DNA from: a virus
DNA: 5,423 nt
Reading direction: 5' to 3' (one strand)
Virus record (IMG/VR): IMGVR_UViG_3300045988_113695
Location: 1-5,423 of that record
In this document: piece by piece, positions 2,994 to 5,423 of the stretch
How the letters are laid out: every line of letters begins with the position of its first letter
Position numbering within the stretch: the first letter of the stretch is position 1
Notes under the pieces: model-generated
What the model was told of the DNA's origin: nothing
The model's database searches: none
Seen by the model: the letters and a program-made list of their open reading frames with translations, nothing else
Position numbers and translations under genes: made by a program

Positions 2994-3251
2994 ATGAATC
3001 AAGAAATGATTGTATCTGTTTCAAGTGCTGCGGCAAGTCTCTTCGTTGCGTTCTGCTCATTCCTTATTAGTTTCCTGAAGACTAAACAAGCTAATAAAGA
3101 AACTGAAGCTGCTAAGTTGAGATATGCTGAAGCTGTATTGAATGGTTGTTATTTGATTTGTCCGGATTGTGGTAGAAAGATTGATTTAAAGGATATTCAC
3201 TGGTATCAACAGTCTTCTACTTCTGATTTAATGAAAGGAACTACTAAATGA
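2994..3251 (+). CDS. Small membrane protein, 85 aa. It has one N-terminal TM helix (IVSVSSAAASLFVAFCSFLISFL) followed by KTK, then a charged C-terminal tail with a C-x4-C-P-x-C cluster. Candidate lysis or exclusion protein.
   Basis: ATG 2994 has AAAGGA 6-7 nt upstream. A hydrophobic 23-aa segment is followed by basic residues (positive-inside rule). Its stop TGA 3249-3251 overlaps the ATG of the next ORF. Confidence 0.55.
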   Translation: MNQEMIVSVSSAAASLFVAFCSFLISFLKTKQANKETEAAKLRYAEAVLNGCYLICPDCGRKIDLKDIHWYQQSSTSDLMKGTTK

Positions 3252-3361
3252 GAAAAAGAGAAAATTCCCATGCTCGACATGCTATATTTAGCACAACTGC
3301 TAGACGTACAAAGGCTGTTAATTTGCCTAGAATGAATTCAAGAGGTGGAATCAGATTATGA
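3248..3361 (+). CDS. Arg/Lys-rich mini-protein of 37 aa (MRKRENSHARHAIFSTTARRTKAVNLPRMNSRGGIRL). Candidate J/ORF8-like ssDNA-binding packaging protein. It is below the ORF-track size cut-off.
   Basis: The ATG at 3248 overlaps the upstream stop (ATGA), and AAAGGA (3232-3237) lies 10 nt upstream. There are about 10 Arg/Lys plus 3 His in 37 aa. Its stop TGA 3359-3361 overlaps the next ATG at 3358. Gokushoviruses (Chlamydia phage ORF8, phiMH2K ORF8) encode a similarly small basic protein. Confidence 0.5.
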   Translation: MRKRENSHARHAIFSTTARRTKAVNLPRMNSRGGIRL

Positions 3362-3606
3362 CTAAAATTGTATTTGAAGTTTTCGATAAAGTTTCTAAAC
3401 TTTATAGTGATCCTGTTGTAGTTGTGAACTTTGATGTTTATGCTAGAAATCTTTTAGATGCTGATTTTATTAGAAATCATTTAGATGATTTTGTTGTTTA
3501 TGAAGTCGGTTCTTTTGATGATGCTCTTGGAACTATTAAGATTTATCCTGAGCCTATTATTCATGAGTTAGGAACTTTGCAACATGGAACAAAAGAAAGT
3601 AAGTAA
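3358..3606 (+). CDS. VP5: VP5-like small non-structural protein, 82 aa. By position it would be the C-like DNA-synthesis/packaging factor, immediately upstream of VP3.
   Basis: ATG 3358 has AGAGGTGG 9 nt upstream. The size and position (between the Rep/accessory block and VP3) match VP5 in the usual gokushovirus order. I recognise no sequence motif, so the assignment is positional. Confidence 0.45.
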   Translation: MTKIVFEVFDKVSKLYSDPVVVVNFDVYARNLLDADFIRNHLDDFVVYEVGSFDDALGTIKIYPEPIIHELGTLQHGTKESK

Positions 3607-4105
3607 AGAAGAAATTGTTTCTATTCCTTCTGTCAATGTTTATCCATTTACTTTTAGAGCTTACAAAGATGAACCTTTGGATTTGTCTCGTACCAAAGAA
3701 TCTGTTTGGATTGAAAATGAAGATGGTCAGATTGTCCAAAATGGTTTTGAGGATGTGGATCTAAAAATTCAGAAAGCTGCTGAAGGTGTTTCTTTGATTG
3801 ATGTTTTGAGAAGGGATCAATTAGCTGATCAGAATTCTATTGCTCCTGTTAATGATGCTCAATTTGGTGATGTTTCAAAAGTTGAACATGATTTGGTTTT
3901 AGCTGATAAGCAAGCTAGATCTGCGATAGATTCTTTTAATAATCTTCCTGAGGCATTTCGTGCAATGTTTGACAATGATTATCGTAAATTTGCTCAATCG
4001 TTTAGTGAAGATTTGTTGAAAAAGTATATTGGTAGTGTTTATAAGCTTGATGATAAGAAAGTTGATAATAAGAAACTTGATGATAATCAGGAGGATAAAA
4101 AATAA
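3584..4105 (+). CDS. VP3: Internal scaffolding protein VP3, 173 aa.
   Basis: The protein is acidic, with an LPEAFRAMFDNDYRKFAQSF segment resembling the conserved C-terminal region of gokushovirus VP3, and a Lys/Asp-rich tail. Its stop TAA 4103-4105 overlaps the VP1 ATG (TAATG). It overlaps the 3' end of the upstream ORF by 23 nt in another frame. Confidence 0.72.
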   Translation: MEQKKVSKEEIVSIPSVNVYPFTFRAYKDEPLDLSRTKESVWIENEDGQIVQNGFEDVDLKIQKAAEGVSLIDVLRRDQLADQNSIAPVNDAQFGDVSKVEHDLVLADKQARSAIDSFNNLPEAFRAMFDNDYRKFAQSFSEDLLKKYIGSVYKLDDKKVDNKKLDDNQEDKK

Positions 4106-5423
4106 TGCCTAATTTGCAACATACATTTGATATAGCTCCTACTAATGTTAATCGAAAGAGATCTATATTTAGTTTAAATCACACAAATAAGCTTGATTTC
4201 AATGCCGGTGATTTGATTCCTATTGATACAATTGAGATTTTGCCCGGTGATACTGTTTCAATGGACATCTCTGCTGTTATTCGTTTATCAACTCCACTCG
4301 TACCTGTTATGGATGATGCTTTTGTTGATGTTTTTGCATTTTTTGTTCCCAATCGTATTATTTGGAAACATTGGGAAGAGTTTTGCGGTGAAAATAAATC
4401 TTCTTATTGGGCTCAAACAACTGATTGGTTGTTGCCTACATTGATTGTAGGTGATTCTTATGTTGCTGTCGGTTCTGCTGGTGATTTCCTTGGTTATGGT
4501 GCAGCTGCCTCTGGTCAGTATCAAGGTAATTTAGCTGCTTACGGTAATGTTCTTGCTGCTGGTGCTTATGTTCAAATTTGGAATGATTGGTTTCGTGATC
4601 AAAATACTCAAGCTCCTCAGAATACTTTCTATGAATTGGCTAATGGTGCTGAAATTGATTGTTCTTCTGGTGATATTCATGCTGATATTCTTCAACCTAA
4701 TTCTTTCCAGATTTCTTTAGGTCTTTTGCCAGTCAATAAGATTCATGATTATTTTACTTCGTGTTTGCCAGCTCCTCAAAAAGGCAATGCTGTAAGTTTG
4801 CCTCTTGGTCAGTTAGCTCCTGTTGTTTTTACTGATGATACGACAAAGTTTAATGCTAATGCTGGTATTCCTAGATTTAACACTAATGGTTTGGGTGATG
4901 AAGCTAATGGTTATGATCTGCATGCTTTCAATTCTTTGATTCAGCAAAATCATAAATTGGTTGGAACTGATCGAAATGTTACTGTTTCTAGTGGTGGAAA
5001 GGATTTGTCTATTGTTAATGCTTATGCTGATTTGTCTTCAGCATCTGCTGCAACTATAAATCAATTGAGACAAGCATTTGCTACACAGTATTTCCTTGAG
5101 AATGATGCTCGTTTTGGTACTCGTTATGTCGAGGTTCTATTAGGGCATTTTGGAGTAAATGCTGGCGATTATCGGCTTCAACGTCCAGAATATCTTGGTG
5201 GTTCACGTATTCCTGTATCCACTACTCAAGTCTCTAATAATACTGCTTCTTCTGGTACACCTCTTGGCACTCTTGCTGGTTTTACATATGGTCAACAGTC
5301 TGGTTCTTTGTTTACTAAGTCTTTTACTGAACATGGTCAATTATTGATTCTTGCTGCTTTGCGTTATAGGCATTCCTACTGTCAAGGTATATCTCCGTCT
5401 TTGAGAAGAAGATCTAAATTTGA
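4105..5423 (+). CDS. VP1: Major capsid protein VP1 (F-like), N-terminal about 440 aa. The frame is open to the window end, and in the circular genome it continues at base 1 and ends at 449. The total is about 570 aa.
   Basis: ATG 4105 has AGGAGG (4089-4094) 10 nt upstream. The N-terminus MPNLQHTFDIAPTNVNRKRSIFSLNHTNKLDFNAGDLIPIDTIEILPGDTVSMDISAVIRLSTPLVPVMDDAFVDVFAFFVPNRIIW matches the conserved Microviridae capsid pattern (phiX F shows a similar pattern: ...PVIAGDSFEMD...RLSPL...VDIFTFYVPHR...). There is no stop in frame 1 from 4105 to 5423. Confidence 0.9.
   Translation, partial: MPNLQHTFDIAPTNVNRKRSIFSLNHTNKLDFNAGDLIPIDTIEILPGDTVSMDISAVIRLSTPLVPVMDDAFVDVFAFFVPNRIIWKHWEEFCGENKSSYWAQTTDWLLPTLIVGDSYVAVGSAGDFLGYGAAASGQYQGNLAAYGNVLAAGAYVQIWNDWFRDQNTQAPQNTFYELANGAEIDCSSGDIHADILQPNSFQISLGLLPVNKIHDYFTSCLPAPQKGNAVSLPLGQLAPVVFTDDTTKFNANAGIPRFNTNGLGDEANGYDLHAFNSLIQQNHKLVGTDRNVTVSSGGKDLSIVNAYADLSSASAATINQLRQAFATQYFLENDARFGTRYVEVLLGHFGVNAGDYRLQRPEYLGGSRIPVSTTQVSNNTASSGTPLGTLAGFTYGQQSGSLFTKSFTEHGQLLILAALRYRHSYCQGISPSLRRRSKF
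5369..5423. repeat. Second copy of the 55-nt terminal redundancy.
   Basis: Identical to 1-55. Confidence 0.9.

Follow-up and report, generated by a model that had tools for sequence, protein, structure and literature searches.

The locus between orf85 and VP5 raises the question of whether a short open reading frame of 37 codons, lying on the + strand at positions 3248-3361, is a gene at all and, if so, what kind of protein it encodes. An earlier note on this DNA had proposed a small basic protein of the J/ORF8 type, packaged by microviruses together with their genome. The ORF was found exactly where that note had placed it, and its product is very likely VP8 (ORF8), the small basic DNA-binding protein known from gokushovirus-type Microviridae.

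The viral genome and the reading frame between orf85 and VP5

The stretch of DNA analysed (the window, 5,423 nt) represents a complete circular gokushovirus-type Microviridae genome together with an assembly repeat. Positions 1-55 and 5369-5423 form an exact terminal direct repeat of 55 nt, an artefact of circular assembly, so that the actual circular genome measures 5,368 nt, with VP1 crossing its junction. Pfam and PHROG searches recognised VP1 to VP5, all of them on the + strand, these being the major capsid protein VP1 (Phage_F, E-value 1e-27), the pilot protein VP2, the internal scaffold VP3 (Chlamy_scaf, 1.4e-12), the replication initiator VP4 (REP_ORF2-G2P; phrog_942 at 6.6e-78) and VP5. 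The gene order is VP1-VP2-VP4-orf122-orf85-miniORF-VP5-VP3. When the whole window was compared with the GenBank phages by megablast, the sole match was of 48 bp within VP1, indicating that no close relatives have been deposited there. A scan for promoters and terminators gave no signal exceeding the shuffled expectation. The features discussed here are as follows.

2560-2928, + strand: orf122, acidic and rich in Cys, His and Trp
2994-3251, + strand: orf85, with a hydrophobic N-terminal helix (IVSVSSAAASLFVAFCSFLISFL) and then a zinc-ribbon-like CPDCG motif
3234-3239, + strand: Shine-Dalgarno-like AAAGGA, 8 nt 5' of the VP8 ATG
3248-3251, + strand: ATGA junction orf85/VP8, the TGA of orf85 (3249-3251) overlapping the VP8 ATG
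3248-3361, + strand: very probable VP8 (ORF8) coding sequence, 37 codons and TGA, with the product MRKRENSHARHAIFSTTARRTKAVNLPRMNSRGGIRL
3248-3313, + strand: basic N-terminal and middle segment of VP8 (residues 1-22), carrying seven of its ten Arg/Lys and the two His
3341-3358, + strand: RGGIRL codons of VP8 (residues 32-37), a predicted capsid anchor from invariance in the family and analogy to SpV4
3358-3361, + strand: ATGA junction VP8/VP5, the VP8 TGA (3359-3361) overlapping the VP5 ATG (3358-3360)
3358-3606, + strand: VP5 (Pfam Phage_ORF5, E-value 4.7e-9; phrog_1670)
4105-5423, then 56-449 over the circular junction, + strand: VP1, major capsid protein of 570 aa, delimited from the Phage_F match, the reading frame and the terminal repeat

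The mini-ORF begins with the ATG at 3248-3250 and cannot extend upstream, as an in-frame TAA lies directly 5' of this codon (3245-3247). The ATGA overlaps described in the earlier note are present on both sides, as is the ribosome-binding site that it had called proper, and orf85, the mini-ORF and VP5 are probably translationally coupled by means of the two overlaps. In the interior of the mini-ORF (3252-3357), no other overlapping ORF of at least 30 aa was found on either strand.

Its codons had been described as T-biased, which stood in part. The third codon positions have equal shares of T and A (41% each), and T is thus below the range of the other genes (48-66%); the high third-position A is due to the use of AGA for six of the eight Arg codons. 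The frame is nevertheless the one which best fits the coding bias of the genome, since T at third positions reaches only 14% and 19% in the two other frames of this stretch. The peptide is basic, as had been claimed, with 8 Arg and 2 Lys, although the exact Arg/Lys content is 27% (10 of 37 residues) and not the approximately 30% given before. It also has two His and a single acidic residue (Glu), resulting in a net charge of +9, and its mass is estimated at about 4.3 kDa.

The Arg-Gly-Gly codons close to the end of the mini-ORF (AGAGGTGGA, 3341-3349) also form an SD-like GGTGG approximately 10 nt before the VP5 ATG, and the anchor motif hence doubles as a downstream RBS. Within the wider family, tight coupling to the downstream gene brought no enrichment of GGAGG (9 of 38 coupled cases and 5 of 27 uncoupled ones), and this dual use of the Arg-Gly-Gly codons therefore looks incidental.

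Conservation of the frame as protein

Short ORFs are common, the window possessing 45 of at least 30 aa, and an open frame of 37 codons is by itself within chance; its significance comes from conservation. The mini-ORF might accordingly be regarded as a frame left open by chance within non-coding spacer DNA, with any conservation being due to constraints on the nucleotides, such as the RBS of VP5, and not on a protein. This reading would agree with the SD-like GGTGG ahead of VP5 and with the fact that gene callers left the mini-ORF uncalled, but the substitutions observed among relatives argue strongly against it.

Two related IMG/VR contigs, L011 (IMGVR_UViG_3300045988_057821) and L012, were compared with the window, their VP5 proteins having identities of 78% and 88% to that of the window. 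Each has an ORF of 37 codons at the corresponding site. Between the window and L012 there are nine nucleotide differences, distributed over the three codon positions as 2/0/7, of which seven are synonymous and two non-synonymous (pS 0.27, pN 0.02, pN/pS 0.09). Between the window and L011 there are 28 differences (8/4/16), with 16.5 synonymous and 11.5 non-synonymous (pN/pS 0.21). The earlier note had pointed to the balance of synonymous and non-synonymous changes, and across the three pairwise comparisons pN/pS ranges from 0.09 to 0.21. The final 22 residues are identical in the window and both contigs with the codons differing, and Arg residues have been retained through two-base codon switches from AGA to CGC or CGT, a pattern at odds with a chance frame.

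The signals surrounding the ORF were also compared. AAAGGA is kept in L011 and L012, even though the upstream context in L011 differs, and the downstream ATGA overlap with VP5 is likewise kept in both. The upstream overlap with orf85 is kept in L012 and has been lost in L011 by way of an insertion of about 370 nt, and therefore this overlap is not essential. The insert (L011 2517-2890) lies between the orf85 homolog and VP8 and holds an ORF of 60 codons (2597-2779).

As for the two ORFs preceding the mini-ORF, orf122 had no Pfam or PHROG match and is conserved in L012 and more divergent in L011. There was no convincing Pfam or PHROG family for orf85, which is conserved in both contigs. A membrane protein or one of a lysis type is conceivable for orf85; no other lysis gene is evident in the genome.

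Single-protein scans with VP5 and VP4 gave only these same two contigs, L011 and L012, and VP5 was too divergent to serve as an anchor. For an unbiased set, 80 IMG/VR loci were picked by VP4 similarity alone, using the VP4 alignment, and their six-frame ORFs of 20-80 codons were searched with a profile built from the peptide family (E-value ≤0.01). Matches were obtained in 75 of the 80 loci, all on the VP4 strand, with zero matches on the opposite strand of these loci and zero in shuffled DNA at the same threshold. In four of the five remaining loci, a motif search found a sub-threshold ORF ending in RGGFRM-stop or RGGWRF-stop, the fifth being a partial locus. An intact comparable ORF of 35-59 codons on the VP4 strand is thus present in 79 of the 80 VP4-anchored loci; an absence of such an ORF from related genomes, which the earlier note would have counted against the gene, is clearly not observed. 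These relatives have the same C-terminal motif even where the downstream gene is a different or distant one, which is not what would be expected of a sequence held constant by the RBS of VP5.

Homologs of the product have in addition been seen as protein in virions (PMC11281519). The reading as a chance frame is effectively refuted by the substitution pattern together with the conservation in 79 of 80 loci, and its probability is considered to be close to negligible. The ORF is a real gene that codes for a protein and is held under purifying selection.

Family membership and the comparison with phiX174 J

When MRKRENSHARHAIFSTTARRTKAVNLPRMNSRGGIRL was searched against the PHROGs, phrog_10695 alone was matched (E-value 1.8e-3, 19.4 bits), residues 2-37 of the peptide aligning to positions 4-39 of the 39 in the profile. 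ORF8 of Chlamydia phage Chp2 matches the same PHROG at 5.8e-19, the 'putative DNA binding protein' of Bdellovibrio phage phiMH2K (J-like according to its GenBank record) at 8e-8, and three metagenomic homologs at 1e-9 to 4e-13. This PHROG is still labelled 'unknown function'.

The earlier note had suggested alignment with ORF8 of Chp2 and with phiMH2K, and a common Phe (F14) and C-terminal motif were indeed found. In an alignment of ten sequences which includes these two, F14, R32, G33, G34, I35, and R36 (window numbering) are invariant and all ten members terminate in RGGIR[LFM]-stop. RGGIRL forms the C-terminus in 37 of the 65 unique family members, with the window peptide being one of these. 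Using tblastn against 50,697 phage records, the peptide matched 270 records, with a coverage of 80% or more of its length in 155, and the recognised organism groups among the matches listed were all microviruses. The E-values are individually weak (the best being 3e-3), and membership is hence taken from motif, size, context and conservation combined.

Chp2 ORF8, the phiMH2K protein and VP8 of phage phiEC6098 are similar to the window peptide in size (38-44 aa compared to 37 aa) and in possessing a basic N-terminal two-thirds, a Phe at about position 14 with a T-A motif after it, and an RGGIR[LFM]-stop ending. They also have the PHROG, strand and genome type in common with it. On these sequence grounds the window protein is a member of the family formed by Chp2 ORF8, phiMH2K and phiEC6098 VP8, and is referred to as VP8 below.

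There are also differences between the window and these phages. VP8 of the window has 10 Lys/Arg compared to the 16 reported for phiEC6098 (PMC11281519), and it has two His residues. The gene is located downstream of VP4 and immediately precedes VP5, in contrast to ORF8 of Chp2, which is situated just upstream of VP4, and the window has two extra ORFs, orf122 and orf85, between VP4 and VP8. Members of the family range in length from 35 to 59 aa, most being of 36-42 aa, and have 8-17 Lys/Arg with a median of 13. The window peptide is found at the low-charge end, as 11 of the 65 unique members carry 10 Lys/Arg or fewer.

The position of the VP8 gene varies across gokushovirus-like genomes (loci L015-L093), being just upstream of VP4 in 50 of 65 unique members and downstream of it in 14 of 65, the window included. 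Among the junctions of VP8 with its downstream gene, ATGA is the commonest type (14 of 75).

Phage phiX174 J, a small basic peptide of 38 aa, enters the particle along with the ssDNA and has its C-terminus lodged in a coat-protein pocket that is hydrophobic (PMC11281519); it is annotated in GenBank as 'core protein; DNA condensation'. VP8 has been described as an Arg/Lys-rich polypeptide analogous to it (PMC11281519) and would work in a like manner. The composition and C-terminal Leu of the window VP8 resemble those of a J-type small basic peptide, its anchoring being predicted from homologs. It could be asked whether this likeness goes beyond functional analogy, with VP8 belonging by common descent to the phiX174 J family (Microvir_J) itself. 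The two are similar in size (37 and 38 aa) and in their basic N-terminal part, both have a hydrophobic C-terminal residue after Gly-Gly (RGGIRL in VP8 and YVGGQQF in J), and the structure of their last four residues within the capsid pocket is conserved (PMC11281519).

The sequence comparisons and the genomic position are all against such descent. With Pfam Microvir_J (PF04726), neither the window peptide nor Chp2 ORF8 nor the phiMH2K protein gave a match at an E-value of ≤10, whereas phiX J itself matches at 1.7e-16. The latter falls in PHROGs 2354 and 3780 and not in phrog_10695, and comparing the VP8 alignment with phiX J by hhalign gave a probability of 0.3%. In phiX174, J (848-964) lies immediately upstream of F (1001-2284), while in the window VP5 and VP3 separate VP8 (ending at 3361) from VP1 (starting at 4105). 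Sequence homology of VP8 to phiX174 J was thus rejected, and common descent is judged to be highly unlikely. There is also a difference in their arrangement in the capsid, the N-terminus of phiX J heading to the two-fold axis and that of SpV4 VP8 to the five-fold axis (PMC11281519). Phage phiX174 J is therefore a functional analogue and not a relative within the sequence family. Of the J/ORF8-type protein originally proposed, ORF8 stands, on the grounds of phrog_10695, the RGGIR[LFM]-stop ending, the selection on the frame and the 79 loci, and J is retained as a functional analogy only.

Predicted place in the virion and annotation of VP8

The family profile matched two solved virion proteins in the PDB, namely 8DES chain E, a 'putative DNA binding protein' of phiEC6098 ending in MRGGIRL (E-value 2.5e-6), and, marginally, 9CGM, the 'DNA binding protein ORF8' of SpV4 with 60 chains (E-value 3.6). 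As a single query against the PDB, MRKRENSHARHAIFSTTARRTKAVNLPRMNSRGGIRL gave no match with phmmer and only the family profile reached these two entries; the alignment behind this profile included the window peptide, and the PDB match thus ties the family, and not the window sequence alone, to the structures. In pairwise comparisons, the window peptide has 12 identities over 35 residues with 8DES chain E, and is identical to SpV4 VP8 at 14 of 38 positions in a global alignment.

SpV4 VP8 offers the best structural account of the way a peptide of this kind is seated in a capsid. It is 38 aa in length and is Arg/Lys-rich, with RGG near its C-terminus and a terminal hydrophobic residue as in the window protein, its C-terminus being RGGRRF compared to RGGIRL. 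[quoted passage not shown] For VP8 of phiEC6098, the same source describes only the last ten residues as ordered; it also reports the last seven residues of VP8 as superposable between phiEC6098 and SpV4 and the last four as superposing with J proteins.

By analogy to these homologs (8DES and 9CGM), VP8 of the window would be present in the virion and bind ssDNA, with approximately 60 copies lining the interior of a T=1 capsid. The stretch of the window peptide which does not vary within the family coincides with the SpV4-type anchor, and Leu37 and the RGGIR turn are therefore predicted to dock into VP1, which by the same analogy (PMC11281519) would be the binding partner of the VP8 C-terminus. 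In this arrangement, the terminal hydrophobic residue Leu37 of the RGGIRL tail would insert close to the two-fold axis into a hydrophobic VP1 pocket, equivalent to the one filled by Phe38 in SpV4, and the Arg/Lys-rich N-terminal two-thirds would point inward and bind the ssDNA backbone, partly neutralising its charge during and after packaging. Residues 1-22 are those likely to contact the genome, considering their composition and the ordering of the N-terminus in SpV4. If 60 copies are assumed, a net charge of +9 would provide about 540 positive charges for the 5,368 phosphates of the genome, or approximately 10%.

It should be mentioned that the GenBank record of Chp2 labels ORF8 as 'nonstructural'. 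VP8 could on this basis be a real but non-structural peptide, binding nucleic acid within the cell or acting in replication or packaging without being retained in the virion, or else regulating, for example, VP5. The tight coupling of VP8 to VP5 in the window would suit such a role, VP5 being a possible analogue of phiX174 C, a regulator of the switch to ssDNA synthesis (PMC11281519), as would the window peptide being less basic than most family members. Two members of the family, however, have been modelled within virions with the C-terminus inserted in VP1, and SpV4 preparations contain a band of the size expected for VP8 (PMC11281519). The conserved part of the window peptide is, moreover, precisely the anchor motif RGGIRL. 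A non-structural function for VP8 of the window is consequently given very little credence, and a virion protein remains the preferred reading.

The differences noted above could also be seen as signs of a lineage with a modified packaging module. A charge-poor VP8 (+9, with two His) would here accompany a comparatively large genome of 5.37 kb, with orf85 or orf122 compensating, and VP8 would be the middle cistron of the overlapping orf85-VP8-VP5 chain. Either the lineage-specific, membrane/zinc-ribbon-like orf85 or the acidic orf122 could then be a new partner in DNA condensation, packaging or lysis. Such a module is highly improbable. VP8 of the window is a previously uncalled member of a well-known and well-understood family, and its differences are ordinary variation.

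That automated annotation misses this gene had been supposed in the earlier note, and this proved to be so. The public gene calls of the source contig (ena:ERZ28570331, scaffold_4919) comprise VP1, as the 570-aa gene, VP2, VP4, orf122, orf85, VP5 and VP3, with a gap at the mini-ORF. The mini-ORF is likewise uncalled on a contig from the ERZ27229661 sample, which is 100% identical over the 3,953 nt compared, and the exact product MRKRENSHARHAIFSTTARRTKAVNLPRMNSRGGIRL is absent from the public gene-call collection. Of the 40 GenBank matches listed, 19 are without a feature at the match and seven are named 'DNA binding protein', with the others having only the name of a neighbour or 'hypothetical protein'.

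No new biology is implied by the finding of VP8 in this genome, and its meaning is a matter of annotation quality. VP8 is a core component of the gokushovirus virion and yet is skipped by the public gene calls on these two contigs. It can be recovered by a simple rule, namely to look on the VP4 strand for an ORF of 35-60 codons with the ending RGG-x-R-[LMIF]-stop, which succeeded in 79 of 80 loci.
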